Shown: positions 728 through 63,795 of the stretch, one piece after another
Position numbering within the stretch: the stretch's first letter is position 1
Layout: every line of letters begins with the position of its first letter
From: a virus
Taxonomy: Duplodnaviria; Heunggongvirae; Uroviricota; Caudoviricetes
Direction: 5' to 3' (one strand)
Length of the DNA: 64,000 nucleotides
Virus record (IMG/VR): IMGVR_UViG_3300017705_000602
Position numbers and translations under genes: made by a program
The notes under the pieces: model-generated
Told to the model about the DNA's origin: nothing
The model's input: only the letters and a program-made list of their open reading frames with translations
Databases searched by the model: none

Positions 728-746
728 ACAAATCCTCAAAAAATGG

Positions 747-790: not shown

Positions 791-804
791 ACAAGGAGCA
801 ACAC

Positions 805-1066: not shown

Positions 1067-1080
1067 ACAAGGAACCGCAC

Positions 1081-1296
1081 ATGAAAGACTACGTTAACCA
1101 GGCAGCACCCAAGCAAGAAAACAAGATTGTTACCATGATATTCTTTTCAATAGCCATGTTTGGCATGTTCATGTTTCTTGGTGTTGTTACTATAGCAACT
1201 GTGAGCACAGCAAGCGATAACACCGTGAACGCAGGCATTGCAGGTGCCGTGATGTTTGTGATAGGAACCATTGCAGGTTGGAACCGAAAAACATGA
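1081..1296 (+). CDS. Small two-TM membrane protein (71 aa)
   Basis: AAGGA SD; two hydrophobic segments. Confidence 0.8.
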   Translation: MKDYVNQAAPKQENKIVTMIFFSIAMFGMFMFLGVVTIATVSTASDNTVNAGIAGAVMFVIGTIAGWNRKT

Positions 1297-1297
1297 G

Positions 1298-1326
1298 TTG
1301 ACAACAACGCAACAACATGTTACCAT
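1298..1326 (+). promoter_or_regulatory. sigma70 promoter
   Basis: TTGACA(1298-1303)-17 nt-TACCAT(1321-1326). Confidence 0.7.
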
Positions 1327-1350
1327 GCACACTCACAAGGAGATAAGTGC

Positions 1351-1611
1351 ATGGACGAACTGTTAGAACACATCGGTGAGCTGAACGTAATGAAAAAGCT
1401 GACCGGTGATTACATTTTTTATTCACAGGAAGCTGAGTATTGGAAATCACAAAAGGTCGAGTCTGTCAAGGACTTTGAACACTGGCAAGCCAAGCAAGAG
1501 TACGAACGAACATATCGTGCCCTTGGCCACAGAGGTTACTTGCCAATAGATCCCGATGCATACACAGCTGAACAACTACAACAACAAACGCGAGCAATGA
1601 CACAAGGATAG
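1351..1611 (+). CDS. Hypothetical protein (86 aa)
   Basis: AAGGAG SD and own promoter. Confidence 0.8.
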   Translation: MDELLEHIGELNVMKKLTGDYIFYSQEAEYWKSQKVESVKDFEHWQAKQEYERTYRALGHRGYLPIDPDAYTAEQLQQQTRAMTQG

Positions 1612-1615
1612 CACA

Positions 1616-2062
1616 ATGGAAAACTTCAACTTCGAAGTACTCGACAGCGATCAAATTGACATCAACGGCACTGTTATCGATTTGCACACAGTCCCGCAAA
1701 ACAGATTGGACACCATGCAAGCCAGGTATTCGAACAAGGCGGGCAGTGATGCCGACTGGGAAAGCGGTGGATACTATGCGGCAGCTCTTGAGGCCATTGA
1801 GCGAGTTCAAGCACATCGAGTTGAATTTCCTGAAGTGACCAAGGACCCCGAAGACTTGTTGGCCATAGCTAAATCCAAGCAGGTAGACGAGACCGTGATA
1901 TGTCCGCAATGCAAAACTCCATTTGTCAAGACACAATCACAACAGACTTTTTGTTCAAACGGCCGAGGTGACAGTCAAGGCAACTGCAAGGATCGATACT
2001 GGAACCTGCACTCACCTGCACGCAAACAAAGACTTGACAACATTCACGAGAACTATGTATGA
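1616..2062 (+). CDS. Hypothetical protein with C-terminal zinc finger
   Basis: CPQC...FCS...CKDRYWN cysteine pattern; AAGGA SD. Confidence 0.75.
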   Translation: MENFNFEVLDSDQIDINGTVIDLHTVPQNRLDTMQARYSNKAGSDADWESGGYYAAALEAIERVQAHRVEFPEVTKDPEDLLAIAKSKQVDETVICPQCKTPFVKTQSQQTFCSNGRGDSQGNCKDRYWNLHSPARKQRLDNIHENYV

Positions 2063-2301
2063 AAGACAGTACAAAAGGATTTGTGGCATTTGCCATGTTT
2101 GCATTATCGGTAACCATGTGCTTGCTCAGCTTTAACAGCATTCTTGGATTCATGTGCGGCATAGTTGCACTGGTCCTGATCGGTAACGGACGCATGCAAG
2201 ACTGGGCTGACATAGGGCAGTTTATAACTCCACGTGTGTTCACTTTCATTGTGTTGCTGTCAGGTACACTGTTAGTGATCGGACAGTCACTAAATACGTA
2301 A
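2059..2301 (+). CDS. Small membrane protein (80 aa)
   Basis: ATGA overlap with the upstream gene; three hydrophobic segments. Confidence 0.75.
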   Translation: MKDSTKGFVAFAMFALSVTMCLLSFNSILGFMCGIVALVLIGNGRMQDWADIGQFITPRVFTFIVLLSGTLLVIGQSLNT

Positions 2302-2322
2302 AAATAAAACGAGTATAACACA

Positions 2323-2565
2323 ATGATGGAAATAGAAAAACACGAAGTGATATTTTTCACTCACAACAAACGCAAGTACGCCAGGTTCCCCGATTGCGAA
2401 TGGTTTCGCAAGAGCAAGAAAGGAAACTGGAAGCAATTGGACGAACACGACACTGATCTGATCGAAAATCGTTATCGCGCAGTCAAGCGTGAGATGCGCA
2501 AGAACTTTCTAAAAGAACTTGAATTCTTCTCAGGTTGGAGACCAAAAGACAAAGACAAAGATTAG
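2323..2565 (+). CDS. Basic hypothetical protein (80 aa)
   Basis: ORF tiles the region on the dominant strand. Confidence 0.7.
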   Translation: MMEIEKHEVIFFTHNKRKYARFPDCEWFRKSKKGNWKQLDEHDTDLIENRYRAVKREMRKNFLKELEFFSGWRPKDKDKD

Positions 2566-2566
2566 G

Positions 2567-2595
2567 TTGACACCTGGTCAGTCAGTTGCTATTAT
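2567..2595 (+). promoter_or_regulatory. sigma70 promoter driving sRNA-2
   Basis: TTGACA(2567-2572)-17 nt-TATTAT(2590-2595). Confidence 0.8.
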
Positions 2596-2600
2596 AGTGA

Positions 2601-2728
2601 CAGTGTTAGCGCACAGCAAGGTGTTGTTAAGTCCTCGCCTTGTACTACTTGATTGTCAAAGTCATCACCCCCAACCGATGACCCTTCATGTACAATCGCA
2701 GGCTTGCAGAAATGTAAGCCTTTTTTTT
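2601..2728 (+). ncRNA. Putative small structured RNA (sRNA-2, ~125 nt)
   Basis: Own promoter; hairpin 2616-2643; nested hairpin 2651-2697 with C-rich loop; intrinsic terminator 2700-2728. Confidence 0.65.
2700..2728 (+). terminator. Rho-independent terminator
   Basis: AGGCTTGCA-GAAA-TGTAAGCCT followed by a T run. Confidence 0.85.
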
Positions 2729-2755
2729 GACTTCTGTTTCTGAGCATGCTATCAT
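2727..2755 (+). promoter_or_regulatory. sigma70 promoter
   Basis: TTGACT(2727-2732)-17 nt-TATCAT(2750-2755). Confidence 0.75.
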
Positions 2756-2784
2756 ATGCACAACCAACCACTTAAGGAATCAAC

Positions 2785-3348
2785 ATGAAATACTGTATCA
2801 TGATTGTGCTGGCTGTGTTCAGTTTCAGCACACTAGCACAACAGGCACCCGAATGCAAGATCGATCCGGATTGGAAACAATCCAAAATACAAGAAACACT
2901 GGAGGCCTGTAAGCAATCGACCACGGCTGTAGTGCCACAAGCAGTAGCACAAGACGTGAGTGCGTATGCAGAAATTGCCAAAGGTGTAGCTGAAGCTATA
3001 GGTATTGCCGCACGCGAAGTAGGTGTAGCTGTAGACGAGTTTGTGAAAACAGACACAGGCAAGATGACCGTTGCACTTATAGTGTGGCACGTTGCAGGAG
3101 ATGATATCAAAGGCATGCTGTTTGGCATTCCCGGCATCTTGTTTGCAGTGTGGTTGTGGTTTACCATTGCTGCCAGACTCAAACGAACAGGTGAGTATGT
3201 TACTGTCAAGAATCGTTGGGGTCGCGAAGTGAGCGTACACAAGCTCAAGGCAGTGGCCGACTTTGATGGACCAGATGGATTCAGCTTTCTGATACTGTCC
3301 GTGTTCTGTGGCGCCATTGTGGTAGTGTGCTTGGCAAACATATTCTAA
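2785..3348 (+). CDS. Membrane protein with signal peptide (187 aa)
   Basis: MKYC...STLA signal-like N-terminus, C-terminal TM helices, AAGGA SD. Confidence 0.8.
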   Translation: MKYCIMIVLAVFSFSTLAQQAPECKIDPDWKQSKIQETLEACKQSTTAVVPQAVAQDVSAYAEIAKGVAEAIGIAAREVGVAVDEFVKTDTGKMTVALIVWHVAGDDIKGMLFGIPGILFAVWLWFTIAARLKRTGEYVTVKNRWGREVSVHKLKAVADFDGPDGFSFLILSVFCGAIVVVCLANIF

Positions 3349-3376
3349 AAACATATCACAAAAAACAAATAAAAGG

Positions 3377-3422
3377 TTGCATGGTGCAGCCTTTTTTCTT
3401 ATACTGTACACAACAGTTAGGA
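3377..3422 (+). promoter_or_regulatory. Early sigma70 promoter plus ACAGTTAGGA leader
   Basis: TTGCAT(3377-3382)-17 nt-TATACT(3400-3405); AACAGTTAGGA at 3412-3422. Confidence 0.85.
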
Positions 3423-3437
3423 AAAAGGAAAAGCAAC

Positions 3438-3662
3438 ATGTCACAAGAACTAAACCAAGTAGTAACAGAATTGAACCGTGAACGCAAGTTCGAAGGCCAT
3501 GCACCTGTAGACAGTGCTAGCAGTCAAAGGTGGGTAGTACTTGACTACATCTACGATCAGCTTGCATCTGAAACACTGTACGGCACACGCACAGCACGTC
3601 AAGCACAAAAGCGCAAGCGCGAGCTTGAGTCAGCCAAGTCACAGTTGTTGGAGCAAGCATAA
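3438..3662 (+). CDS. Hypothetical protein (74 aa, start MSQELNQ)
   Basis: ATG 3438 follows an AAGGA SD and the promoter; the ORF-track start at 3327 lies upstream of the promoter. Confidence 0.75.
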   Translation: MSQELNQVVTELNRERKFEGHAPVDSASSQRWVVLDYIYDQLASETLYGTRTARQAQKRKRELESAKSQLLEQA

Positions 3663-4171
3663 TGCCAAAGAGCAAAAGAACAACACCGGTTACACCTTGG
3701 GACCCCAGCAAGCGTGCAACAGCTCGTGTAAAGAATCCAATCCCGGTACCAACCGACTGTCCACACTGCGAAGGCACCGACATCGAGATCTGCAAGAACT
3801 CACGTGTGTATCGCGGTCGAACATATGGTGAATGGCCTTGGGTGGTCATGTGCAATACATGTTCAGCCTACGTGGGCTTGCATCCGTTTACAGGTATTCC
3901 TCTAGGCACACTGGCCGATCGCCAGACCAGAGATGCACGCAAACGAGTCAAGCAGGAATTTATTACATGGCAAGAAACCAACTGCCTGTCGCGCAACGAT
4001 GCGTACCGATTGCTGGCACAAAAGATGCGTATACCCAGCGAACAGTGTCACTTTGGCTGGTTTGATTTTGACCAATGCGATCTTGCAATGCACGCAGTAC
4101 GCAAACTGGAGCAACAGAAACGTTACCGTCCAGACTCACCTTTTGCAAAATTGAGAGAATTACTCAGTTGA
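3662..4171 (+). CDS. DUF3268-family zinc-finger protein
   Basis: CPHC...W..MCNTC.AYVGLHP.T.IPLGTLAD...SR..AY..LA..M...CH.GWFD...C pattern. Confidence 0.85.
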   Translation: MPKSKRTTPVTPWDPSKRATARVKNPIPVPTDCPHCEGTDIEICKNSRVYRGRTYGEWPWVVMCNTCSAYVGLHPFTGIPLGTLADRQTRDARKRVKQEFITWQETNCLSRNDAYRLLAQKMRIPSEQCHFGWFDFDQCDLAMHAVRKLEQQKRYRPDSPFAKLRELLS

Positions 4172-4196
4172 CAACGCCAGCCATGTGCGTTATCAT
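4168..4196 (+). promoter_or_regulatory. sigma70 promoter
   Basis: TTGACA(4168-4173)-17 nt-TATCAT(4191-4196). Confidence 0.8.
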
Positions 4197-4232
4197 GTAC
4201 ATGAAACAATATGCAATCAAAGGAATAAAAAT

Positions 4233-4709
4233 ATGACCACAGTAGCGCAATTGATTATTGAAAAGCTAACCGCAATCGAAGATCGTCTCGCACAGATTGA
4301 ACAGCGACTTGACAATCACGAAACAGCATTTTTAAACGACATTGTTGAGCCGGCCACGACTGCCACAGTTTCGGTTAAGCCCACACGCAAACGCAAAAAA
4401 GGAAACCGGCATGCCAAGCATCTTCCGCATCGCATTGCAACCAAGTTGCTGGAAGACCATGAGCTGGCCGAAAGCACTCGCAACACGTATGCCAACACAC
4501 TGCGCCGCTTGCTAGAAAACACCTGGATGGTACCAACCTTGATCAAGAAGCGTAACCAAGGCGTGCCATACGAATACATTGCTCAAGACCCACAGTTCAG
4601 CGACTACAACAGCAAGCGTCTGCAAAACATGGTCAGCGTAGGATTGCGTTATGGTGTAATCGAACGTGAGTCAGATGGCAAGTACCGCGAAGGCAACATC
4701 ACAGCATAA
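4233..4709 (+). CDS. Hypothetical protein with N-terminal coiled coil and basic patch (possible DNA binding)
   Basis: ATG 4233 after AAGGA; heptad-like LTAIEDRLAQIEQRL; KPTRKRKK. Confidence 0.75.
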   Translation: MTTVAQLIIEKLTAIEDRLAQIEQRLDNHETAFLNDIVEPATTATVSVKPTRKRKKGNRHAKHLPHRIATKLLEDHELAESTRNTYANTLRRLLENTWMVPTLIKKRNQGVPYEYIAQDPQFSDYNSKRLQNMVSVGLRYGVIERESDGKYREGNITA

Positions 4710-4767
4710 TCATGCAAGCACAGGGTTGCCACCGGGTAGCCCTGTACCAACACAAGGATAACACAAC

Positions 4768-4965
4768 ATGGTAGTAGGATCAATCTGGTGGGGCATGATT
4801 GGCATTGCACTTGCACTGTACAACAGTGTCATGCTTTATCAAAACACACAAGCCTGCATCGAAAAACCTGAACGCGCACGCAGACCATTCATGATATTCA
4901 TGCTAGTGATAGGTGCCATAACCGGCCCTGTGTTGCTAGTATACGTTGTGTACGGAATGTTATAA
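4768..4965 (+). CDS. Small two-TM membrane protein
   Basis: AAGGA SD; hydrophobic profile. Confidence 0.7.
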   Translation: MVVGSIWWGMIGIALALYNSVMLYQNTQACIEKPERARRPFMIFMLVIGAITGPVLLVYVVYGML

Positions 4966-4966
4966 C

Positions 4967-5140
4967 ATGTGGTGGGTCACTGTACTGAACGCAGTGCTCG
5001 TGGTGTTTCACGGCACCATGCTGATACACTACGCACGCAGTATGAAACAAGACAACAACGACTGGAATTGGTTTAGCTGTAACATGTCAGCGTTCTTGTT
5101 TGTAATGCTGGGCGCAAGCGTGATTGATAATATTTTTTAA
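4967..5140 (+). CDS. Small two-TM membrane protein (start MWWVTV)
   Basis: ATG 1 nt after the upstream stop; same architecture as the preceding gene. Confidence 0.65.
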   Translation: MWWVTVLNAVLVVFHGTMLIHYARSMKQDNNDWNWFSCNMSAFLFVMLGASVIDNIF

Positions 5141-5147
5141 AAAGGTG

Positions 5148-5193
5148 TTGACAAGTGTACCCGTTCAATCTATACTGTACACAACAGTTAGGA
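5148..5193 (+). promoter_or_regulatory. Early sigma70 promoter plus ACAGTTAGGA leader
   Basis: TTGACA(5148-5153)-17 nt-TATACT(5171-5176); AACAGTTAGGA at 5183-5193. Confidence 0.9.
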
Positions 5194-12855: not shown

Positions 12856-14050
12856 AATGTATTACTTTCACTCCAGTAATCTCAGGATGTTTTCTCCACG
12901 GGTCAACAATTACTGATCCTGGAACTGGATCAATTACTGCGTTTAATATATCTTTATCGTCATAAGTGATTGCCGAAGAATGCGCCATTAAAAAAGTGTG
13001 CGGTAAAGTTTCATCGTATGGTTCGTTATCGCGCAGATCGTCGCAGTTGTCGTCGTCGACATAATGAACTTGTGTTCCAAGTTGCTTTACGTATTCGCCT
13101 GTTAGTATACTAATAGAGCCTGCAGAATATTCAACACCCGGCTTATACGATTTGCCTACTATAACAACAGGCAATCCGTATGATACAAGTTCTTTTGCCA
13201 TGTTCTTTGCTTGCTGTTCTCGTGCAACCATGATAGCATCAAACAAGTCGTAGCCTAGATCCAGTCGGTTAGCCATTGAACGCAATGCTATATTATCGCG
13301 TGGATGACAAGCACCTCCATCGCCTAGCCCGGCTGTCATGTACTTAGGTCCGTTGATGCGGAATGTTGATTTAGCAAGTGCATCAGTTACAACATCGACA
13401 TTCATGTTTCCGTTGCGTTCTGCTACATCTTGCATCATGTTAACTAATGCTAGTTTAGAACTGATCCAGGTATTATAGAATATCTTAATGGCTTCTGCTT
13501 CGTCCCATGTGCCTACTTCGATGCGCGGATCATTTTGCATGATCGGCTTATAAAAATCAATCAGCTCTTGCGCATCACCGGTCAGCGAACCGTCTTCGGT
13601 TCCGATAATAATCATTTCGGGATTGACCATGTCGTATTCAACTGTGCCCATGGCTATTAAATAAGGGTTGTAAACGAATCTAAACGAGTCGAAATGCTTT
13701 TGAAAAATGCGTCTCACTGTACCAGGCAACACGGTACTGATAAGCACCACTAGCTGATCTTTGGTGGTATACTTTGCAATTTCCGACAACACTGTATCGG
13801 CAATTGAATAGTCAAAATCTTTTGGTTCGAGATGGCAAGTAGGATCTTTACCATCATATCTTTCGTCATGCGGAGTTGGAACAGCTACAAAAATAATATC
13901 TCTATCAGTGACACATTCTTCAATGGTCATTGCTTGCAAAAAGCGAGAATTAACGATAGCAGTGTCGTATCCGATTACATTGTAGTGCTTTGACATTTGA
14001 TAAGCACACGGTTCGCCTAGTTTCCCTATGCCAATAAATCCAACGTTCAT
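12833..14050 (-). CDS. ugd: UDP-glucose/GDP-mannose 6-dehydrogenase
   Basis: GIGKLG, VAVPTP, STVLPGT, EAIKIFYN, GGACHPRD, SYKP, DPW. Confidence 0.93.
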   Translation of the reverse strand: MNVGFIGIGKLGEPCAYQMSKHYNVIGYDTAIVNSRFLQAMTIEECVTDRDIIFVAVPTPHDERYDGKDPTCHLEPKDFDYSIADTVLSEIAKYTTKDQLVVLISTVLPGTVRRIFQKHFDSFRFVYNPYLIAMGTVEYDMVNPEMIIIGTEDGSLTGDAQELIDFYKPIMQNDPRIEVGTWDEAEAIKIFYNTWISSKLALVNMMQDVAERNGNMNVDVVTDALAKSTFRINGPKYMTAGLGDGGACHPRDNIALRSMANRLDLGYDLFDAIMVAREQQAKNMAKELVSYGLPVVIVGKSYKPGVEYSAGSISILTGEYVKQLGTQVHYVDDDNCDDLRDNEPYDETLPHTFLMAHSSAITYDDKDILNAVIDPVPGSVIVDPWRKHPEITGVKVIHYGNTRNR

Positions 14051-37700: not shown

Positions 37701-40700
37701 CTATCCACGATCCATCGCCGTTGTCGCTTATCCAAACCAAGTCGGCGTTATCAATTTCGTTGCCATTGTAATCGTCGACATGCTGATTTGTATCAAAACG
37801 CAAGTTTACAAATGTCCCGAATTTAACATCGTATTGAACACCATTAGGATGTTCAAATCTTTCGAATCCGATTAAGTTATCGCTTGCGTCGAACAATTGG
37901 TATTGCGACCCGTTGCGTTTTGCAGTTGCAACAAATTTGTCGGCTAGTATGTCTTCAAATGGTACACCAGCCGGATTAACTAGTTCAACGGTTACTGTAA
38001 ACGATTCAGCAGTGTATTGGTTTGAGTTATCGTCGAACCCAAGTGTGCATTCTGGATATCTTTTACGGTTGTCTCTAAACGACACAGTGCTAAAGTTGTC
38101 GAAGAAATCGACAACAGTATTGTCAAGAACTGCTTCGCTTTCGCTACCTTCGATAAGGGCAATGTTGTCTTTTTCAACATTTTTATAAACTGCCCAGGTA
38201 TTTGCTGATGTGTCAGCTACCCAAATAGTATTGCCCGCAGAAGGACGAATATCAAGTTGCTTGTCCCACAATGTCGAAACGTCTTTGTAAACTGAATAAT
38301 CAACGTCGTCGTAATGAACAAAACCGGCAGTCGGTAAAGACCCAAACGGCATGCTAGCTAATGTCGGTACACTGTTTTCAAAGTTTATACCGTCTGGCTT
38401 TTTCAACCAGCGTTGCTTGTCGTCACTGTCAATGTCAATTATTTGATCAAACGGATCATCTGCGTTAACTTTACGCTGAACTACCGCATACGCAATGTCA
38501 GTGTTAACCAATTGAGTATTTTCAAATGTTGAATTTTCACGCTCGATAAAATCGCCTTGAATTGTAATTTCAGGTCGTGTTCTGTATCCTGCACCACGAT
38601 TTGTTATTTCGATTCTTTCGATATTACGGTTGCTGTCGAGTATTGCAATTGCACGAGCCTGTATCAACTCCGGTGTGTTTTCCGGGTTGTTCGCATCGTA
38701 GCCAGGTGGTGGTGCAATAGTAATCGTCGGCACTGAATTGTATATTTCTTCGGCACTATAAATTTCAATACCTGACACAAAACCAGTATCCTGCAGACTA
38801 AAGTTCAGTCTGTAAATTTGCGGATCTGATCTTATTTCATCGCGCTCAGACAACACTTCGATGCTGATGTCATTTGTAGTAGCACCAAAATCACTGCTCT
38901 TGAATGCCCAGTCTTCATAGAATGTAATTTTATCTTTGTCTTCAAGGCTGCTTGAACGCAACAATTTATTAATTGAGTTAGCAGTTCCTTTTTCTTTTAC
39001 AAAGCCTTGGTAAAAGTTAAACTGTGCCTGGTCGGTAACATTTAACTGATCAAGGTAATCACGACTTTCGTATCCGATCAAGTGTCTTGCCGCATCTTCA
39101 AAGTCTTCGTTATCGTCGACTGTGTTTTCGTCGTACAAGGTGCGCAAGTTTTCTGTTAGTGTATCAAGGTTAGGTAATAATTCTTTTCCTTGTACTAAGT
39201 ATCCTGGTGCTTCGAGTTTACCTGTCCAATCAAGTGTACGTGTGCCGGATATGCGTAAACGAGACTGACGAGTATTCAGTACTGGGTCGTATACAATATC
39301 GTTAAAGTCAGTTATTTTGTCAACTACAATGATATGTTCTGTTTCAATTGCATTAACACGCAGGTAGAATATGCCTTCGCCTTCTCTCACAGTCGATACA
39401 GAGATATTTCTATTGTCTCTGTCAATAACAGTGTTTAGCGGATCAATTGCAAAGCCATCTTTGTCAAGAATGCTGTATACGCCATTAGTTAAACGCTCAA
39501 CGTTGTCAGGGTATCCATCTTCAATTTCTAATGCTACGTTGCCTGCACTTGGGCTTAAAGCTAATGCATTGTTTTCTTCCCAGTTGTTGGCAGCCCAGAA
39601 CAAGAACTTCTCGCCCGCGGTTTTCCAGTTGTCGACTTTGCCATATATATCAATGTCGTTGTATTGCCATCCTTGACTTTCTAGATATGCACCGTACCCA
39701 ATTAAGAAATCGAACACTTCCTGCGCAGTACCAAACTTAGTTCCGTAAACCACACGCTCGAAGTCTTCTTTTCTGTCAGGACGATAAACAACCGATATGC
39801 CACCTTGCGATGGTAACTCCGGTAAACGTATCCAGTCACTTGAAACAAAACTGTTGGCTACAATTGAAACTCTAGCTCTGTAGAATGTTCCACTGTAGCG
39901 TACTATTTGACCTTCGTTGTATCGTTCACCGAACTCAAATTCCTGAAACGGTGCTGGTGTTCCGCCTTCTGTGATACGCACTTGTCTTGAATTTGAAGCA
40001 GTAGGCAAGAACTTAAATTCCTGCGCAATTAAGTCGTAACCGTAAACACTAAATGTTGAGTCACTGTTGACATTGATCAGTACACCTGAGTACGAATAAC
40101 TTTTTACTGGTGCGCCTGTGTACAAAGCAACATCGAAGTTGTTTGATGGTACCAGTAACGACCCTTGATCTGCACTTGAAACTGATTCAAGGAACAATCT
40201 TAGTCTGTCTCTGTTTGTAAATCCGCCAACTTTGTGGGCTAATTCAACTCCGAGTCCTCTAACTTTGTTACCGATATTTCTAGTGATATCAAGGTTGTTA
40301 AATACCAAGAAGTCTGAAATATATTGCTGATATCCAGATCTAACAACAGTTTCACCTTCGACTGTTTCGCCGTGTACCAGCTGATTGCTGTTGATTGGTC
40401 TAAATCCAGTTCTTGTGTCTACAAACTGATCGTCGATAAAATCAATGCTTTCTGGATCCCAGAATTTTTCACCAAAAGCCGCTGGCTTCATTAGGTAAAA
40501 ATATTCAAGTTGCGAGAAGAAATACTCTGGTGTTCTATACCATGCATTTTCTACAGGGCCTTGATCACCGTATACCCACGGACCGTCTGGGTGAGAAACA
40601 TCTGACTCAGTGTATCCGAATATATCAACAATTGCTTTTTTATCCGAGTTATCATAAACAGGTACAATGTTGTCTGTTCCTGCTACACCAACATACGGGT

Positions 40701-54562: not shown

Positions 54563-54607
54563 ATGCTGAACAATAGAGTGTCCAATGGATTTGACACAGG
54601 AGTCAAA

Positions 54608-55519
54608 ATGGCAAAACGTAAGGTTAATTACCTCAATAACAAGGATATGTTAAAAGAGATTCACAAAAGTAAAATTAATTTTTGTGAGTACGACTCGGAA
54701 TCAGACACACTGTTTGATTCAATAGTTGACAACTTATCTGACATCACACAAGAAAAAATCACAGAAGCCAAAGAAGCACAAGCTAAACGGCTGTCCAAAG
54801 AAGCACATTTAGTTGCAGTTGAGAAATTTGATCGCGGCGAAATGGAGCAAAAAACAAAACCGAAACTGGCCACATACAAAATTGATGCAAGTGACATAGC
54901 CACTAAAGATTTAGTTTTTCGTGTTATGACTTTTGATCATATTCCCGAAGATCTCGAACGTAAGAAAACACACAAAACAGTTGCTGATCGCCATGTGAAA
55001 CTAAACTTTGTGCCGTTCAAACATTACCGTGTTAGAGACGATGCAAATGATGCACGAGATAATAGCTTTTTTGCTGTCACAAACGATGACGGCAATGAGA
55101 TTTATGTAAAGGAAGTGTTACGTTCTCATTATCACAACGGCGAATTTAACTTGACTAACGGCTCAGTTACACGCAAGCTTGCTGAAATGTACCTGCTCAT
55201 GGTTAACAAGTACGGCGAGCGTTCAAATTGGAGAGGCTACACTTACCTTGACGAAATGAAAGGGCAAGCATTGTTACAGCTTTCGCAAATGGGATTACAG
55301 TTTAACGAAGCAAAAAGCGACAACCCGTTTTCGTATTTTACTGCATCAGTAAAAAACAGTTTTACTCGTATACTAAATCTTGAAAAGCGTAACCAAAACA
55401 TTCGCGACGATTTACTTGAGCAAGCAGGTCAAGCGCCTAGCCACACACGTCAAAATGCACATGAAGAAACAGTTCGCAGGAACTGGGAAGATGCGCATCG
55501 CGTGGCTAAAGAACAATAA
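54608..55519 (+). CDS. gp55: Late-transcription sigma factor, T4 gp55-like
   Basis: NYLNNKDML, NW.GYTY.DEM, FN..KS.NPFSYFT....N.F.R....EK; upstream of gp47/gp46; AGGAG SD before ATG 54608. Confidence 0.88.
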   Translation: MAKRKVNYLNNKDMLKEIHKSKINFCEYDSESDTLFDSIVDNLSDITQEKITEAKEAQAKRLSKEAHLVAVEKFDRGEMEQKTKPKLATYKIDASDIATKDLVFRVMTFDHIPEDLERKKTHKTVADRHVKLNFVPFKHYRVRDDANDARDNSFFAVTNDDGNEIYVKEVLRSHYHNGEFNLTNGSVTRKLAEMYLLMVNKYGERSNWRGYTYLDEMKGQALLQLSQMGLQFNEAKSDNPFSYFTASVKNSFTRILNLEKRNQNIRDDLLEQAGQAPSHTRQNAHEETVRRNWEDAHRVAKEQ

Positions 55520-55530: not shown

Positions 55531-56544
55531 GTGAGTAACTTATTTAAAAAGGTAGCCTGCTTTACTGATATACACTACGGAAATAAACATAATTCGCGTG
55601 TTCATAATAACGATTGCGAAGACTTTCTAAAATGGTTTATCAGTGAAGCAAAAGCAAGAGGATGCGAAACTTGCATCTTCTTGGGTGACTGGCACCATCA
55701 TCGTTCTAATGTTAATGTTTCTACATTAAATTATACCATGTCGGGTTTGCGCATGCTTAACGAAGCGTTTGATCAAGTGTACATAATCACTGGTAACCAC
55801 GATTTGTTTTATCGTGAAAAGCGCGAAATACATTCGCTTATCATGGGCCAGGAGTTCAACAACATTAAAATTGTAGACGAAAAAATCGTTGACGGTGATG
55901 TTGCTATTGTGCCTTGGTTAGTTGAAGACGAATGGAAAGAAGTAAAAAAGATCAAAACAAAATACATGTTTGGTCATTTTGAGATTCCGGGTTTTAAAAT
56001 GAATGCGCTTGTCGAAATGCCCGACCATGGACAAATCAATCGTACACATTTCCAGCATCAGGAATATGTTTTTAGTGGTCACTTTCACAAAAGACAGCAG
56101 TCCGGTAATGTTCATTACATGGGCAATCCGTTTGGTCACAACTATGCAGATGCTTGGGACTTTGAACGCGGTGCTATGTTTTTAGAATGGGATAAAGAAC
56201 CTGAGTACGTTGACTGGACAGATGGCCCACGATACATCACATGCAAGCTTTCAAGTTTACTTGACGACACAGACACTTATCTCAAGCCAAAGACTTATGC
56301 AAAAGTATCACTTGATATTGATATTACTTACGAAGAAGCTAATTTCCTGCGCGAAACGTTTATGGAGAACTACGACATACGTGAGTTCAAACTGTTACAT
56401 GACCGTTCGGAATCAGAAGAGCATGAATTCGAAGGTGAAATCGAGCATCAAACAGTCGATCAAATTGTGCTTGAGCAACTTGGTAGCATTGAAAGCAACT
56501 CGTTTGATAATGCTAAACTTCTTTCAATATACAACGAGCTTTAA
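55531..56544 (+). CDS. gp47: Mre11/SbcD-like recombination nuclease
   Basis: TDIHYG, LGDWHH, GNHD, GHFE, SGHFH. Confidence 0.93.
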   Translation: MSNLFKKVACFTDIHYGNKHNSRVHNNDCEDFLKWFISEAKARGCETCIFLGDWHHHRSNVNVSTLNYTMSGLRMLNEAFDQVYIITGNHDLFYREKREIHSLIMGQEFNNIKIVDEKIVDGDVAIVPWLVEDEWKEVKKIKTKYMFGHFEIPGFKMNALVEMPDHGQINRTHFQHQEYVFSGHFHKRQQSGNVHYMGNPFGHNYADAWDFERGAMFLEWDKEPEYVDWTDGPRYITCKLSSLLDDTDTYLKPKTYAKVSLDIDITYEEANFLRETFMENYDIREFKLLHDRSESEEHEFEGEIEHQTVDQIVLEQLGSIESNSFDNAKLLSIYNEL

Positions 56545-58320
56545 ATGATAAAAATTAAAAACATAACCATTAAAAACTTTCTCAGTGTCGGTAACGTCAG
56601 TCAAGCGATACAGTTCACGGACGAAGAGTTGGTACTTGTACTAGGTGAAAACTTAGACTTGGGTGGCAACGATTCGCGCAACGGTGTTGGTAAAACTACT
56701 GTGATTAATGCCTTGTCGTACGCTTTGTACGGCGAAGCAATTGTTAAAATACGCAAAGACAATCTAGTAAACAAAGTTAACCAAAAGAACATGATGGTGT
56801 CACTTGAGTTTACTGTTAACAACAGCAACTATAAAGTCGAACGCGGTCGCAAACCAAACGTGTTCAAGTTTTATGCTAACGGTCAAGAGTTTGGCGACGA
56901 AGACACCAACGAAGCACAAGGTGACAACCGATTAACGCAACAAGAAATTGAACGCATAATCGGTTTATCGCATACCATGTTCAAACAGATTGTTGCACTG
57001 AACACATACAACGAACCGTTTTTGAGCATGCGAGCTAACGATCAGCGTGCAATAATAGAACAACTGCTTGGCATCACTAAATTAACCGAAAAAGCCGAAG
57101 TACTCAAAGGGCTAGTAAAGTTGACTCGCGATCGTCTTAAAGAAGAAGAGTTTAAAATTAAAGCTGTTCAAGAATCTAACAAACGCATAGAGAAGAATAT
57201 TTCTTCGCTTAACTTAAAGTCGCGTTCGTGGGAATCGTCAAGGCAGAAAAAGATCGAAAGCATCAAAAGTGAACTTAAAGACTTGTCGGATCTTGATATC
57301 GAAAAAGAGATTGAGAGCCACAAGTCAAACAGCACTGCTAAAGATTTGCAATCGGTTATTAACTCGCTAGAAAAAGAAATTTCCTCAATCGAGTGGAAAA
57401 TTAAATCGTTTCGTACTACAAAAGATCGTGCCGAAGAAAAGATGAATTCGACTCACGATAGCAAAGAGTGCCCAACTTGCGGACAAGGCATAGGTGATGC
57501 TACGCACGAAGAACTGGTAGCAAAATACAAACTTGAGTTCGACGATGCAAGCAAACATATTGCTGAATGCGAACATGATATCGAAATACTAAAAGCAGAG
57601 TTAGAAAAAACCGAGACGCCTGCCGAAAAACAAAACACGTTTTACTCGTCAGTTGACGATGCTTATCATCACAAAAGTGTATTAAGTGCGCTGGCTTCGG
57701 ATCTTGAAAACGAATCAAAAAGCGAGAACCCGTACATTGACCAAATTGAAGAACTTCAAAAGAACGGTCTTCAAGAGGTTGACTTCGAAACAATAAACGA
57801 GTATACTACGTTAAAAGATCATCAAGACTTTTTACTTAAATTGCTAACCAGTAAAGACAGCTTTATTCGTAAAAAGATTATCGATCAGAACTTAATGTAT
57901 TTGAATAGCCGTTTGTCAAGTTACTTGACTAAAGTTGGCTTGCCGCACGAAGTTAAGTTTAGATCAGATCTTGAAGTTGAAATTACTCAATACGGAAGAG
58001 ACTTTGACTTTGACAATTTAAGCCGAGGCGAAAGGACCCGACTAATTCTTTCGCTGTCATGGGCATTTCGTGATGTTTACGAAAGCTTAAACGGCAAAAT
58101 TAATTTATTGTTTATCGATGAATTAATCGACGGTGGGCTTGACACAAATGGTGTTGAAAACTCACTGTCAGTACTTAAAAAGATGACACGCGAAAATCAG
58201 CGTAGTATCTTTTTAATCAGTCACCGAGACGAACTCATTGGAAGAGTGTCCAGTGTTCTTAAAGTTATCAAGGAAGGGGGCTTCACAAGCTTTTCGTCCG
58301 AAGATACTTACACAGAATAA
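56545..58320 (+). CDS. gp46: Rad50/SbcC-like recombination ATPase
   Basis: KNFLS.GN, NGVGKTT, zinc hook CPTC, LSRGE, LLFIDE, ISH. Confidence 0.95.
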   Translation: MIKIKNITIKNFLSVGNVSQAIQFTDEELVLVLGENLDLGGNDSRNGVGKTTVINALSYALYGEAIVKIRKDNLVNKVNQKNMMVSLEFTVNNSNYKVERGRKPNVFKFYANGQEFGDEDTNEAQGDNRLTQQEIERIIGLSHTMFKQIVALNTYNEPFLSMRANDQRAIIEQLLGITKLTEKAEVLKGLVKLTRDRLKEEEFKIKAVQESNKRIEKNISSLNLKSRSWESSRQKKIESIKSELKDLSDLDIEKEIESHKSNSTAKDLQSVINSLEKEISSIEWKIKSFRTTKDRAEEKMNSTHDSKECPTCGQGIGDATHEELVAKYKLEFDDASKHIAECEHDIEILKAELEKTETPAEKQNTFYSSVDDAYHHKSVLSALASDLENESKSENPYIDQIEELQKNGLQEVDFETINEYTTLKDHQDFLLKLLTSKDSFIRKKIIDQNLMYLNSRLSSYLTKVGLPHEVKFRSDLEVEITQYGRDFDFDNLSRGERTRLILSLSWAFRDVYESLNGKINLLFIDELIDGGLDTNGVENSLSVLKKMTRENQRSIFLISHRDELIGRVSSVLKVIKEGGFTSFSSEDTYTE

Positions 58321-59609: not shown

Positions 59610-59634
59610 AAAAAGGCGCTTTTGCGCCTTTTTT
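59610..59634. terminator. Bidirectional intrinsic terminator
   Basis: AAAAAGGCGC-TTTT-GCGCCTTTTT. Confidence 0.9.
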
Positions 59635-60100
59635 ATTGGGTTGCAAGACGGTCAGCTACTGCGGCCACATCGTTAACTGTGATTAGATTTACCTTAACTT
59701 GTGTTTTGCCTGCTAGGTAGGCTGCAATTACTCTGTGGTTACCATCGGATATAACATTCATTCCGTTATCTTGGTAAACTATCGGCAAGTTGTTTGCATT
59801 AAGGTCAATTGTTTTAACATGATCGGCGTTATACCCGGGTTCAGTCGAAATCAACTTATTGATCGGTACAACAGTAGGACTAACCGAATCTACTACTGCG
59901 TCAATAGCCATTTTATGATAAGACGATGGATTCATGCCCGGTTGCTGTTTCTTTAAATGTCCGGAAACATAGGACAACTCGTCGTCGAAGTCGTCCATGA
60001 CATCCCATGCACGGTTGTCAACTTTGCCGCCGTTCAGTGGATTTTGTTTTCTGCGGGCATCTTCTTCTTGCTCGTCGCTGGTTACTTCAATAATTTTCAT
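59633..60100 (-). CDS. ParB/Sulfiredoxin-like domain protein
   Basis: VP..KL..TE...LPIV......I.DGNHRV.AA. Confidence 0.75.
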   Translation of the reverse strand: MKIIEVTSDEQEEDARRKQNPLNGGKVDNRAWDVMDDFDDELSYVSGHLKKQQPGMNPSSYHKMAIDAVVDSVSPTVVPINKLISTEPGYNADHVKTIDLNANNLPIVYQDNGMNVISDGNHRVIAAYLAGKTQVKVNLITVNDVAAVADRLATQ

Positions 60101-60654
60101 TTGTCTTTCCTGTGATAGCTGCCAAACGTTATACCAAGCTGTTTTGCTTGATCGTCAAATTTTTGTACTTTCTCAGGAGACAATGCACCGTCTTCTTGCT
60201 CGCCACCGTTGTAATACTTGATTTCAACCGGCAACCCCGAAAAACCTAATTTGGCAGCGGCCATTATTCTATGATTACCTTCGTTAACATAAGGTACACC
60301 GTCTTGTCCGATTACCACTTGAGGTGCGTATTCGTTAAACTCGTGCCAATCAGCATCTGGTAGTTTTTGGTTTTTGCCCATGAAGTCTACTAACCAATCT
60401 AAATCGTCTTGTCGCACATTTGACTGTTCGTTATTAGTGCCAGGTATCTTTGCCAACAACTTAACTGGTAAAAATGCTTCACGATTGTACCAACCGGTTG
60501 TCGAGCCCATGATGTTGTATCTACCTGACGGTCGTCTGCCTTCGCTTTCTGTATCTTCACGTTTGTGCTGTAGCCACTTGCCACCCGGATTATCTATTTT
60601 TAATTTCAGCGGTTGCAAGTTTGGTGATTCGGTTAAAATATCTGTTAATCGCAT
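60097..60654 (-). CDS. ParB/Sulfiredoxin-like domain protein (start MRLTDILTE)
   Basis: P.V.I...G...VNEGNHRI.AA..LG...LPV; ATG 60654 overlaps the upstream TAA. Confidence 0.75.
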   Translation of the reverse strand: MRLTDILTESPNLQPLKLKIDNPGGKWLQHKREDTESEGRRPSGRYNIMGSTTGWYNREAFLPVKLLAKIPGTNNEQSNVRQDDLDWLVDFMGKNQKLPDADWHEFNEYAPQVVIGQDGVPYVNEGNHRIMAAAKLGFSGLPVEIKYYNGGEQEDGALSPEKVQKFDDQAKQLGITFGSYHRKDK

Positions 60655-61064
60655 TAGTACTTTGCCTTGTTTGGACACTTGCCGATACGTCCTAAAAACT
60701 CATTGTAATATTCTTTTTTAGGTATAGCATCTTCTTTGATTATTTTGCGGTACTCACCGTAGTTTAGTTCCCACTTAGATTCGAACATTTCGAGTATTTC
60801 GAACTTGAACTTGTCTTTGCCAAGTTTTTCAATATCGGCATTCAGCCGATTTGATGACCCAGTGTATGTTTTCCAATCCGATTCGCGTGTTGCGTGTCGT
60901 TTGTTTTTTCTTCCTTTCAAAGGCGGTCGTTTGAATTTTGACCATAACTGCTTTTGCCCAATGTATTTTTCGCCAGTTTGAGTATTGGTTATGCAGTACA
61001 CAAACCCGTAATGTTCATCAGGGTTAAACGGTTTCTTTGGTTTCCAATGACCGTATTTCGACAT
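60654..61064 (-). CDS. Stand-alone GIY-YIG nuclease (T4 endonuclease II-like)
   Basis: GFVYCITN...KYIGQK...ESDWKTY.GSS...F.FEILE...E...YYN. Confidence 0.85.
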   Translation of the reverse strand: MSKYGHWKPKKPFNPDEHYGFVYCITNTQTGEKYIGQKQLWSKFKRPPLKGRKNKRHATRESDWKTYTGSSNRLNADIEKLGKDKFKFEILEMFESKWELNYGEYRKIIKEDAIPKKEYYNEFLGRIGKCPNKAKY

Positions 61065-61121
61065 TAATCAGTTTTTCCTTGTTGTTTTTAATAAGTGCGG
61101 TAACTATTTGCAAGTTTTATG

Positions 61122-61129
61122 TATTTATA
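61122..61129 (-). promoter_or_regulatory. T4-type late promoter TATAAATA
   Basis: Exact match upstream of the GIY-YIG/ParB operon. Confidence 0.75.
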
Positions 61130-61141
61130 TCAAAAAATTGG

Positions 61142-61170
61142 TTGACAGTTGAGACATTCGAATATATAAT
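61142..61170 (+). promoter_or_regulatory. Perfect-consensus sigma70 promoter firing into non-coding DNA
   Basis: TTGACA(61142-61147)-17 nt-TATAAT(61165-61170). Confidence 0.9.
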
Positions 61171-61176
61171 ACTACA

Positions 61177-62217
61177 ACACATACAGAAGCCCTGCTTCGT
61201 ACACAACAATAGATTCTGGTTATAAGAGTAACGAACTTATATCCTGTGCATATTTCGTTTAGGATTATTACAAGTCCAATAGGGTTAACATAAGCGCGTT
61301 GTTAACACTGGGCGCCAATTCAAGCGTTTAGGATTACTAAGGCCTCTTATTTTTGCAGAGTTAATGCTATCTGCATTCTAGGTCGACAAGCATTATCGAC
61401 AAAGTAAATTCAAAAAAAAACAAAACTGAGTGTAATATAAAAGTGGCTCTGGGCCTTTAAATACATCTAAGAAAAATATTTTTAGATGGGCTATTGTTAG
61501 TTGAAACTATCACCCTTGTGCCTAGCGAATGTATGTCGTGTAGGTTATTAAAATATGATCTGGGTTGCCACAGAGAAAATGTTATGTAAATCATCTGAGA
61601 CTGCATAGTTAACACACATTTTTTCGACGCTTGAGTAAAAGATCTTGTCAGAATACAATCCGCTTGCTATAGAATAACCGACTATAGTACTCGACAGCTT
61701 TCGTGCATGTTCAATGATTGTAAAGATCCTCAAAGCAAAATGGATCCTGCTCTGCAATTAAGAGAGCGATGATTCATTGTTAACACACTAGTTCTGATCT
61801 TTAAATCAAACAAGCAGTTGACAATGATAGCGGCAACAGGAGCTCAAACTAAACTAATCATTAGGTTTTATTTGAGTTGCGGCATTGGTTATTAACGTAA
61901 CCACGATAGACGAAGAGGAAGACGGTGCCCGCCTCAGAAGTATTAATACTACTTCCAGTTTAATGATCTCGTTTCGCCCACACTGAATCAAGTGTAACAA
62001 AACGTTTTTAGACTTTCGCTGGCAACAGCGAATTCTGAGCCATCCTTAATCAAGAATAGACCGATTAGTTAATATTAAAACAAACAACAAACAAATAATA
62101 ATATCACTATTAAAACAGTTTGTAAGCGTAAGCAATTAGATGAGTTATAAATGAAGTGAGTGTAAACGAACGAAATGATTAACGATATCTAATTTGAAGT
62201 AGTGCTTGCACTACTTC
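61177..62217 (+). ncRNA. Putative large (~1 kb) structured non-coding RNA
   Basis: No ORF of 60 aa or more starts in it on the + strand; more than 15 hairpins with G-U pairs, a GNRA loop and nested long-range helices; bounded by a promoter and a terminal hairpin. Confidence 0.65.
62196..62217. terminator. Perfect hairpin between convergent units (probable terminator)
   Basis: GAAGTAGTG-CTTG-CACTACTTC; U-tract is weak. Confidence 0.6.
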
Positions 62218-62735
62218 TTAAGAGATACTTTATAGTATTTGCGTAATGACTTGATCATATCACTATCGTAACAATGCATTATATCACTGTTAGGTTTTAA
62301 GCTAATAGAATATAATGCTTTATGAATTGTTCTGATAGATATGATACCAGAGAACTTTCTCAAGTTCTCAATGCAGAATGCTCTTGTTATTAGTTCGAGA
62401 TCAGCAGGAACATTGTCGAGCACATTTAGTTCAGTATCATAATGCAAGAAACTGCGACATTCCCCTCTGTGAATTACCACATCAGATAACACTTCTTTAC
62501 TGTAATCAAGATCATGTACATAAACTGAATTATCGCATGAGTGAACATGATTAGCAATAGAGTCACTTGCGTCAACAGATAAAGTGTTAACAGGAACACT
62601 GGCACCACCTGGCATGAACGACCATTCGACGTTGCTCCATGTGAGCAAGTTAGTTGAAATGTACAAACGTTGCAAATGTGGATATCTTTTCACGCATTCT
62701 GTGTTGTCTTTAGGAATGTCGAGATCTTGTTGCAT
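62211..62735 (-). CDS. Hypothetical protein (174 aa)
   Basis: ATG overlaps the upstream TAA. Confidence 0.65.
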   Translation of the reverse strand: MQQDLDIPKDNTECVKRYPHLQRLYISTNLLTWSNVEWSFMPGGASVPVNTLSVDASDSIANHVHSCDNSVYVHDLDYSKEVLSDVVIHRGECRSFLHYDTELNVLDNVPADLELITRAFCIENLRKFSGIISIRTIHKALYSISLKPNSDIMHCYDSDMIKSLRKYYKVSLKK

Positions 62736-62965
62736 TACATATACTCTTTTTTACTTCCTGACATCTGTTGTTGTTTCTTGTTAACAGATTTCACGATTCG
62801 TTCTCTTGTTTTAAACGAAATATTCCATGCTTGGTCCCACGTAATACCTCCGTTCATGGCAAAGCAAATGTCGATTATTTGTTGTTCGACATTATCAGCG
62901 CCCCTTTCCATATCCCTAATAACTGAAGAAATTTCTTCAGGCTCGGCTGTTATTAGGAGTCTGTA
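62735..62965 (-). CDS. gp51-like/GT-like C-terminal extension, probably reached by -1 frameshift (internal ATG at 62911 gives 58 aa)
   Basis: Open frame YRLLITAEPEEISSVIRDMERG...MNGGITWDQAWNISFKTRE...EYM* starts exactly at T-TTT-TTT (62971-62965). Confidence 0.7.
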   Translation of the reverse strand, partial: YRLLITAEPEEISSVIRDMERGADNVEQQIIDICFAMNGGITWDQAWNISFKTRERIVKSVNKKQQQMSGSKKEYM

Positions 62966-63795
62966 AAAAAATTAACAGGATTTAGATCAATCTCTGTTTT
63001 CCATTCGTGTTCGCATTTTTCGCATTTGGCACTGAACTCTTTTTGAACACCAGTAGAGTTTATTTTTGTCAGTGTTTCCGAAATGGTCTTGAAAACCTTT
63101 TGGTCCATTTCACGAATAAACTCAGTTAAATGTTCGCGTTCAGTGACTTCGTCGTTGGTTTCGGAGATCACTACTTTTGTAATGCTGTCGCACACCAGTT
63201 CTGCATTGATTTCCGACAAGTTAGTAAACGCTTGCGAGTAAGCGCGAATACGCTCTTCTTCCGGGATACTTTCGTTGTTGAGAACCTTTGCAATCTTGTA
63301 GTTTTCAAACTGTGCCTTGTAGCCTTTGATAACTTCATGGTATGTGCTAGGACGAACATGAATCTCTAAACCGCTTTTTGTGGCGATTTTATACACATCG
63401 TCCAGCTTGTTCATGGTAGTCAACGTTTGTGCAATCCCGACTGCAAAATGGTTTTTATGTTTACATTCTGGGCATTCAGCATCCAGTTCAATTTCGTCAC
63501 CGAACGAAGCATGACGTATTGCAACCATGAGTGCCTCAACATCCACAGACAGTAACTGATCGGGCTGTTTAACAGCAGGTACACAGCTTGAGATAACAGT
63601 TGAAATAGCTTGTCCGTTCAGTAATGCATCAGGGTTTTTAAGAAGAACTTCGTCTTTGGCTGTCATAGGAGATACACCTACTTCGCCATCTTCGTTAAAG
63701 TTGACTATGTCCTTGTTGTAATACTTTGTTCCACTTGGCAAAGTTGTGTATATTTCAGCAGTTCTAAAATACTGCTTTAGCGGATTGTTTGTCAT
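62953..63795 (-). CDS. gp26: Baseplate hub/tail assembly chaperone, T4 gp26-like
   Basis: NPL.QYFR, LPS.G, PMTAKDE...K.PDALLNG, IR.ASFG, CPEC and CEKC pairs, ends NFF. Confidence 0.8.
   Translation of the reverse strand: MTNNPLKQYFRTAEIYTTLPSGTKYYNKDIVNFNEDGEVGVSPMTAKDEVLLKNPDALLNGQAISTVISSCVPAVKQPDQLLSVDVEALMVAIRHASFGDEIELDAECPECKHKNHFAVGIAQTLTTMNKLDDVYKIATKSGLEIHVRPSTYHEVIKGYKAQFENYKIAKVLNNESIPEEERIRAYSQAFTNLSEINAELVCDSITKVVISETNDEVTEREHLTEFIREMDQKVFKTISETLTKINSTGVQKEFSAKCEKCEHEWKTEIDLNPVNFFTDS

Follow-up and report, generated by a model that had tools for sequence, protein, structure and literature searches.

At positions 61142-62217 of a 64,000-nucleotide (nt) stretch of the virus record IMGVR_UViG_3300017705_000602, called the window throughout, we describe a real RNA gene, a member of a family of large phage RNAs that is new, in part multi-copy and without an Rfam model. 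The source of the window is an uncultured marine T4-like phage, and the public sequencing runs containing the stretch are labelled as marine or seawater metagenomes. The family spans uncultured marine phages and three loci of the cultured therapy-candidate phage PA5oct. One of its members was known already, being annotated in RefSeq as a putative long non-coding RNA (lncRNA) under the name ncRNA004; beyond that annotation, the accessible part of the literature yielded no account of the family, its fold, the two other PA5oct copies, the marine members or the syntenic RNAs described below.

The RNA locus and its conserved fold

The locus opens with the perfect sigma70 promoter that a preliminary description of the sequence had announced, with TTGACA at 61142-61147, a spacer of 17 nt and TATAAT at 61165-61170, a match at 12 of 12 positions. 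The whole window contains two exact matches to this consensus and five with at most one mismatch, compared with 0.79 ± 0.82 in 100 shuffles. Relatives of the locus were sought by several routes. A gp26 search of IMG/VR gave four loci, and the gap of the one designated L001 aligns end to end with the window gap (68.7% identity over 1,178 columns). Scanning metagenome contigs for motifs returned 23 loci, three of them true homologues according to nhmmer: L046, L047 (identical to L001) and L060 (partial and identical to the window). The remaining 20 were not homologous by nhmmer and were taken as chance matches. Two exact motif scans of IMG/VR had the L001 contig as their sole match, and a distant blastn search of the gap against 50,697 phage records found no match. 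The window-type set consists, as a result, of three distinct sequences (window, L001 and L046), which are 70-77% identical to each other in nucleotides over their full length and all of which retain the promoter hexamers (the -10 box is TATACT in L001 and TATAAT in L046) and the terminal hairpin.

The statement that the transcribed region has no credible open reading frame (ORF) agrees with our analysis. Between the flanking genes (61065-62210), the longest ORFs are of 69, 62, 52 and 48 amino acids (aa), and no ORF of at least 40 aa is positionally conserved across the window, L001 and L046. In the alignment of the three sequences, 8 of 39 indel runs are divisible by 3 and 31 break the frame. 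This alignment is a mosaic in which invariant blocks of 15-39 nt alternate with stems that have been rewritten on both sides, such as GCTCAAA/TTTGAGT, which becomes GCTTGCT/AGCAGGT, and TGGTTA/TAACCA, which becomes TGATTG/CAATCA.

Covariation in this alignment supports a conserved fold. On the plus strand, RNAalifold gave a consensus energy of -194.3 kcal/mol, compared with -104.5 ± 7.1 in 30 shuffles that permute the alignment columns and keep the conservation pattern, and 54 of 252 pairs were compensatory, compared with 16.4 ± 3.8 (maximum 24) in the same shuffles; the minus strand gave -174.6 kcal/mol and 42 compensatory pairs, figures that have no shuffle control. In the consensus structure, 94.2% of the cells are paired against 88.1% in shuffles, and 54 pairs are changed on both sides against 21.9 ± 3.4, a number that none of 500 shuffles reached and that falls to 4-9 when the structure is slid along the alignment. 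It is important to note that the consensus structure was derived from the same alignment on which it is scored, and the controls carry more weight than the raw counts. The preliminary description had proposed comparing the fold with shuffled sequence, and the comparison came out in its favour: the 611-nt core (61440-62050) has a folding energy of -164.7 kcal/mol, where shuffles give -139.1 ± 5.8, with z = -4.46 and none of 20 shuffles as good, and the minus strand is weaker (z = -2.15). Its observation that mismatches read mostly as G-U on the plus strand also stood, with 67 G:U against 12 A:C cells, a count favoured by the fact that the structure was predicted on that strand.

A natural variant of the locus was also available in contig X12, found in one run, which is 2.8% divergent from the window and has 23 substitutions within the RNA. 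Twelve of these are at unpaired sites and 11 at paired sites, where 7 keep or create a pair. They include a double change (61223 T>C with 61239 A>G) that turns a U-A pair into C-G, and 62179 T>A, by which a U-U opposition with 61247 becomes U-A, completing a pair in the helix that closes the 5' and 3' ends. The parts of the locus, all on the plus strand, are the following.

61142-61170, +: sigma70-type promoter, TTGACA-17-TATAAT, 12/12
61177-62217, +: predicted RNA of ~1,040 nt, its start inferred from the -10 box and its end placed at the terminal hairpin
61218-61244, +: 5' hairpin (helix 1), site of the X12 double change
61284-61306, +: hairpin GTTAACA/TGTTAAC, in L046 CATATCA/TGATATG with 7/7 paired and 3 pairs changed on both sides
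61439-61574, +: R1 domain, 136 nt, closed by GUGGC/GCCAC and including the variable hairpin 61464-61488
61741-61766, +: invariant block with hairpin CUCU-GCAAUUAAG-AGAG, invariant in the three window-type sequences
61774-61827, +: long hairpin TCATTGTTAAC/GTTGACAATGA, 11/11 paired in the window
61842-61877, +: hairpin GCUCAAA/UUUGAGU (helix 29), 6 of 12 pairs changed on both sides
61902-61935, +: purine-rich conserved junction CACGATAGACGAAGAGGAAGACGGTGCCCGCCTC, nearly invariant in the three window-type sequences
62015-62032, +: GNRA-loop hairpin UUCGCUG-GCAA-CAGCGAA, invariant in the three sequences and uninformative on covariation
62060-62130, +: A-rich, AT-rich linker whose length and sequence vary among relatives
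62140-62178, +: conserved 3' motif ATGAGTT...GTGAGTGTAAACGAACGAAATG, part of it predicted to pair with 5' TTCGTTTA (61255-61262)
62196-62217, +: terminal hairpin GAAGUAGUG-CUUG-CACUACUUC (helix 39), 10/10 pairs kept and one changed on both sides in L001

The twelve helices named in the preliminary description are all fully paired in the window, eleven of them where it had placed them, and GAAGTA/TACTTC, listed there without a position, lies at 61937/61950. Their evolutionary support differs. Covariation backs four hairpins, at 61284, 61573, 61842 and 61886, as well as the variable stem at 61464 (GCC-GAAA-GGC in L001 and an unrelated stem in L046); for the hairpin at 61937 it does so in L046 only. 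The long hairpin at 61774 fares less simply: in the MAFFT register it is paired at 7 of 11 positions in L001 and 4 of 11 in L046, and it gains support only after the alignment is re-registered by eye, when CCAACTGAAT/ATTCGCTTGG and CCGTTCCGTA/TACGGCACGG each pair at 9 of 10 positions by our own reading, not by a tool count. For TTGAGTA/TACTCGA, an alternative, CTTGAG/CTCAAAG, is better supported through a compensatory change and is favoured by X12.

The long-range helices, by contrast, found no support in the relatives. TGGCTC/GAGCCA is invariant in the three window-type sequences, but the R1 domain and PA5oct show instead a local GUGGC/GCCAC pairing that is changed on both sides; TGGGC/GCCCA has mismatches in both relatives, and GTTGCC/GGCAAC has mismatches in the relatives, with C-A in L046. 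The multi-branched domain of about 600 nt that these helices were supposed to close is present in the consensus, but it is closed by AGGUC (61380-61384) with GAUCU (61965-61969), and it is further enclosed by the pairing of the 5' region with the conserved 3' motif (helices 2, 3 and 34, with one compensatory change in L001). A candidate hairpin GTCGA...TCGAC (61382-61400) was rejected: neither L001 nor L046 has it, and it would be disrupted by two natural variants, 61385 G>A and 61396 T>C.

The R1 domain and its copies in phage PA5oct

Special attention was given to the R1 domain (61439-61574), from which we built a covariance model of 136 positions and 33 pairs using the three window-type sequences. 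The window, itself one of those building sequences, scores 167 bits and belongs to the family so defined; the independent members are three loci of the Pseudomonas phage PA5oct, which match over the full length of the model, all on the plus strand, with 63-70 bits and E-values of 1e-14 to 1e-16.

246148-246276, +: R1 copy, 69.9 bits, inside ncRNA004
75986-76118, +: R1 copy, 63 bits, E 1e-14, between the gp46 and gp26 genes, the synteny of the window
12897-13030, +: R1 copy, 62.7 bits, in a 911-nt gap free of coding sequences (CDSs) in the terminal repeat

When the six sequences are fitted to the model, 96.9% of the cells are paired and 13 of the 33 pairs are changed on both sides, compared with 0-2 in slid controls; the structure had been defined without the PA5oct copies. 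A single R1 copy is present in the window, and likewise in the 79.5-kb L001 contig. One further match, in the locus L035 (6192-6320, E 3.5e-4), was discarded as false: it falls within a 388-aa gene, and many of its positions do not pair.

A sigma70-type promoter and an ORF-free body accompany R1 in this family. The syntenic and terminal-repeat copies of PA5oct have an exact TTGACA-17-TATAAT (12/12), and ncRNA004 has TTGACA-17-TAAACT (10/12), with a predicted start about 10 nt from the annotated one. According to Lood et al. (2020, PMC7318152), whose text and tables were available in part, ncRNA004 is a "putative lncRNA, annotation based on RNA-Seq data" at 246116-246734 of NC_071039.1 and one of four transcribed ORF-free regions of PA5oct (their Table 1); the available parts describe no structure, family or function for it. 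The proposal that the window encodes a large structured non-coding RNA gained both a covariation-supported fold and a homologous domain in a transcribed ORF-free region of a cultured phage. The accompanying claim that the RNA is not recognisably any known family holds as regards Rfam, where it has no match, but the RNA is no orphan, given its three PA5oct loci and the lncRNA annotation of one of them.

Outside R1, a global MAFFT alignment of PA5oct with the window is unreliable, and the resemblances that follow were read by eye, except for one BLAST match. The order of blocks is the same as in the window: R1, a GCUCUG hairpin block, GGUnCCCGCCUC, the 3' motif in a hairpin and a terminal hairpin. 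In all three PA5oct copies, R1 is followed by GGAUGnnGCUCUGG-loop-CAGAG, similar to the invariant block at 61741-61766. GGUnCCCGCCUC occurs in copies A and C and a terminal hairpin in all three, and parts of the conserved junction are found as GGTGCCCGCCTC in copy A and GGTCCCCGCCTC in copy C. Copies A and B share, by BLAST, a 3' loop identical over 32 nt on unrelated stems. The members also differ in size and layout, since ncRNA004 is annotated with 619 nt against ~1,040 nt for the window RNA, and the distance from the predicted start to R1 is about 30 nt in ncRNA004 against about 260 nt in the window. The copy at 76 kb sits between gp46/47 and the gp26-like hub, like the window locus.

Two of the PA5oct loci, extending over about 75.8-77.0 kb and 12.8-13.7 kb, are unannotated or lie under doubtful mini-ORFs, and the function of the family is directly testable in this phage. 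Over the syntenic RNA locus and its promoter region (PA5oct 75704-76516, L064:3705-4517) there are four small "hypothetical" CDSs of 39-50 aa, which are probably mis-annotations of the RNA gene; in Salmonella phage 7t3 and Agrobacterium phage Atu_ph07, the equivalent loci likewise lie under small CDSs. Downstream of ncRNA004 (L081, ~1946-1968 and 2009-2031), two 23-nt direct repeats TCATTTTGTGATTTTAATTTAAA, about 40 nt apart, stand in a very AT-rich, CDS-free stretch; they are iteron-like and bear on the origin hypothesis discussed below.

Genomic neighbourhood and other RNAs in the same slot

The window also encodes baseplate proteins, and the genes around the RNA are the following.

54563-55519: gp55-like late sigma factor
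55531-58320: gp47- and gp46-like nucleases
60654-61064, -: SegE-like GIY-YIG endonuclease (Pfam PF19835, E 8e-34), divergent from the RNA
62211-62735, -: conserved 174-aa protein, convergent with the RNA
62953-63795: gp26-like hub (Pfam T4_baseplate, E 2e-23)

By gp46 and gp26, the nearest cultured relatives are PA5oct (56% and 35-36% identity, respectively), Sinorhizobium phage Phosso, Atu_ph07 and Rak2-like jumbo phages. L001 has a 136-aa ORF at the position equivalent to the SegE-like gene. Between the SegE-like gene and a 380-aa ORF, the window has two adjacent ORFs of 155 and 193 aa (59633-60678, -) with weak matches to ParB-like nuclease domains. The 3' arm of the terminal hairpin overlaps the stop codon of the 174-aa protein, homologues of which adjoin an RNA-type gap in 34 IMG/VR loci as well as in L001-L004. 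This protein has no Pfam or PHROG match and no tblastn match in the 50,697 phage records. Its AlphaFold2 model has a predicted local distance difference test score of 68.9, and a Foldseek search of the model against PDB gave nothing at E <= 0.001; residues 78-170 show a weak ATP-grasp-like resemblance (Foldseek E 0.02-0.15), from which we draw no functional link to the RNA.

The same slot holds other structured RNAs in related phages and a multi-copy element in Rak2-like coliphages. In 32 of the 34 IMG/VR loci, an ORF-free element of 500-600 nt, which we call family B (loci L008-L040, for example L015:3364-3870 (-) and L033:4608-5119 (-)), lies just downstream of the 174-aa homologue and convergent with it. 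RNAalifold on 22 of its sequences gave compensatory changes in 39 of 62 pairs, a loop-to-downstream pairing GACGC/GCGU covaries by eye, and the family has no Rfam match. It differs from the window type in having a conserved GCTAAAATAG motif upstream, not a consensus sigma70 promoter. In nhmmer comparisons of family B with the window type, hidden Markov models (HMMs) of the A4 core and of the 5' and 3' tails gave E > 0.7, and the R1 model finds nothing at family B loci, so that the window RNA does not count as a member of family B.

Further elements were observed at equivalent places. In L013 (4499-5515, the same as L002:7565-8581), the slot is taken by a third type, an ORF-poor gap of ~1 kb whose sequence is dissimilar to both the window type and family B. 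Phosso has an unannotated gap of 1,014 nt at 229759-230772 (L066:3760-4773), between genes for a Holliday-junction resolvase and RNase HI, with ATGAGTTTACGAA in the loop of a long hairpin. PBECO4 has an 836-nt unannotated gap beside its gp26-like hub (304727-305562, L067:4728-5563 (-)), and further copies of this element at 37951-38391, 93655-94126 and 195097-195545, which makes four regions in total, with five matched places at 70-80% identity. The core of the PBECO4 element is 67-75% identical in GAP32, CBB, Serratia BF, Yersinia fHe-Yen9-04, Xanthomonas XbC2, Salmonella 7t3 and RaK2/K64-1, and the range of matches also includes Klebsiella jumbo phages; PBECO4, 121Q and GAP32 are the Rak2-like phages named for the multi-copy element.

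Family B and the Rak2-like element resemble the window RNA in their place beside the gp26-like hub and in being ORF-poor, with 0.5-0.8 kb. All three have the motifs AGCGTWTAGG, close to the 5' end, and GAGTT(T)ACGAA, close to the 3' end, and motifs related to 62140-62178 were seen by eye towards the 3' ends of the PA5oct, family B, Phosso and PBECO4 elements. Because short motifs alone are shared, and family B, the L002/L013 type, Phosso, PBECO4 and Atu_ph07 have no HMM or covariance-model similarity to the window type, we treat them as syntenic analogues and do not claim common descent.

Mode of action, rival explanations and comparison with known RNAs

That the window locus is a structured RNA gene we consider very probable. 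As to what it does, we propose that the exact host promoter would allow immediate transcription by the host sigma70 RNA polymerase, early in infection. Small plus-strand ORFs form a cluster behind the second exact promoter of the window (at 71) and three sites with one mismatch (2567-5176), and 71-5176 (+) is probably the early region of the phage; because the other consensus promoters stand before these ORFs, consensus promoters look like early promoters, and early expression of the RNA is suggested on this ground. The transcript would start near 61177 and end at the hairpin 62196-62217, would be closed by its 5'-3' pairing and would work as RNA rather than through DNA; the folded molecule may then act in trans as a scaffold, decoy or ribozyme. 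The trans-acting reading is preferred because many conserved helices and junctions, GNRA loops, end closure and a terminal hairpin typify stable RNAs whose action depends on their fold. That the folded RNA acts in trans, and not as a primer, has in our view about equal chances of being right and wrong, and we place the whole explanation, namely a conserved ~1,040-nt non-coding RNA gene with early host sigma70 transcription and a likely trans-acting folded product, at the same midpoint of confidence.

Several observations weigh against this explanation. None of the public runs containing the stretch is an RNA run, and the terminal hairpin of the window copy is followed by UU alone; without a U-tract it is not a classical intrinsic terminator. 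In PA5oct, the share of phage reads of ncRNA004 is low (0.08, 0.03 and 0.02% in early, middle and late samples), and the 32 promoters and 36 terminators in the available S3 and S4 lists include nothing at the syntenic 75.8-77 kb, a blank that says little given that those lists are in-silico motif and ARNold predictions (PMC7318152). There are only three distinct window-type sequences, and their structure is scored on its own alignment, a bias that the column-shuffle and slid controls, together with PA5oct copies that stood outside the building of R1, lessen without removing it. Four of the 11 paired-site changes in X12 break a pair, in the already weak helices 11, 27 and 38. The data point to no specific biochemical activity or partner, and a replication primer would fit as well with the dispersal of the copies in PA5oct, with the tracts rich in AT and with the recombination genes nearby.

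Such a primer is the main rival: a structured transcript of the host polymerase would stay hybridised to the DNA in the AT-rich tract and serve as primer for the leading strand, with the copies marking origins. T4 origins (oriF and oriG) use promoter transcripts, and ColE1 RNA II needs a specific fold. The dispersal of the loci would suit this role, R1 being found at 13, 76 and 246 kb in PA5oct and the PBECO4 element at 38, 94, 195 and 305 kb, as would their recombination and replication neighbours (gp46/gp47 in the window, a RusA-like resolvase in PA5oct, a resolvase and RNase HI in Phosso, endonuclease VII in PBECO4 and GAP32), the AT-rich tracts near the 3' end (62050-62349 has a GC content of 0.28) and the two direct repeats downstream of ncRNA004. 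However, more than 30 conserved helices, the junctions, the 5'-3' closure and the terminal hairpin exceed the needs of known primer RNAs, and the AT-rich tract lies within the RNA, upstream of the conserved 3' motif and hairpin. The reading draws on genomic context, and tRNA genes are multi-copy phage RNA genes that have no link to origins. We regard a primer role as unlikely on balance. The window RNA resembles ColE1 RNA II and T4 oriF/oriG in being a promoter-driven non-coding transcript of several hundred nt that lies close to genes of replication and recombination and has an AT-rich tract downstream, and resembles the T4 origins in having several loci per genome, but its structure is far more elaborate and conserved, and an origin role is here suggested by context.

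The remaining explanations have much lower standing. A cis-acting or antisense transcript that collides with, terminates or regulates the convergent 174-aa/gp26 unit, or insulates early from late units, would account for the RNA being convergent on the 174-aa gene, for the hairpin over its stop codon and for the conservation of this layout in 34 IMG/VR loci; it is very unlikely, as such a role does not need a conserved 1-kb fold, and the PA5oct copies stand in three unrelated contexts in a phage with no detectable homologue of the 174-aa protein. The SegE-like gene directly upstream in the window and L001 (its start region is kept in L046) and the multi-copy state in PA5oct could suggest part of a mobile or homing element tied to this GIY-YIG endonuclease, for example an intron-like ribozyme or homing cargo. 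We hold this to be very improbable indeed: the element matches no group I or group II intron model and interrupts no gene, and no SegE gene adjoins the loci of PA5oct, family B or the Rak2-like phages. A protein gene that has decayed or is decoded in an unusual way, or a set of small peptide genes such as those annotated in PA5oct and Salmonella phage 7t3, has a nearly negligible probability. CDSs of 31-55 aa are indeed annotated over the equivalent PA5oct and 7t3 loci, and four (40-112 aa) in Atu_ph07, but the three versions keep no ORF in position, their indel runs mostly break the frame, the stems change in a compensatory manner, and the neighbouring genes of the window read normally with translation table 11.

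The window RNA could be part of something wider. It is possible, and put forward here as a tentative idea, that T4-like jumbo-type phages, from the marine ones to PA5oct, fire one to several paralogous RNAs of 0.7-1.2 kb and of an unrecognised class from host promoters at the start of infection, either as self-assembling or catalytic machines (compare the GOLLD/ROOL cages) or as primers of multiple origins. If true, this would add a new layer, based on RNA, to phage biology, in a phage that can be cultivated and engineered, and a jumbo-type phage lineage may depend on large RNAs that annotation pipelines have overlooked.

The suggestion that the RNA falls in the size class of ROOL, GOLLD and OLE without being any of them was borne out by Infernal, which found no Rfam 15 match at the gathering threshold in the whole window. 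At E-values up to 10, the region 60900-62400 has four unrelated weak matches of 17-20 bits against gathering scores of 50-90, and HEARO, GOLLD, ROOL, OLE and the other Rfam 15 families do not reach theirs. No Rfam model of group I or group II introns matches, in an element that lies between two complete genes, and neither ARAGORN nor Rfam identified a tRNA or tmRNA gene in the window. To our knowledge, bacterial and phage RNAs this large with conserved complex folds are very few, comprising rRNAs, RNase P, group I and II introns, OLE, GOLLD, ROOL, raiA and HEARO. Each such class has led to new biochemistry or a new structure. GOLLD and ROOL, of ~600-800 nt and unknown function, are like the window RNA in being large, ornate, phage-associated non-coding RNAs with many conserved helices and junctions. 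They form homo-oligomer cages as seen by cryo-electron microscopy in the part of PMC12286853 available; the words jumbo, T4-like and baseplate are absent from the part of PMC10690425 available. The window RNA further differs from GOLLD and ROOL in having no match in Rfam 15, in being carried by Gram-negative T4-like jumbo-type phages and in belonging to a family that is multi-copy within one genome.

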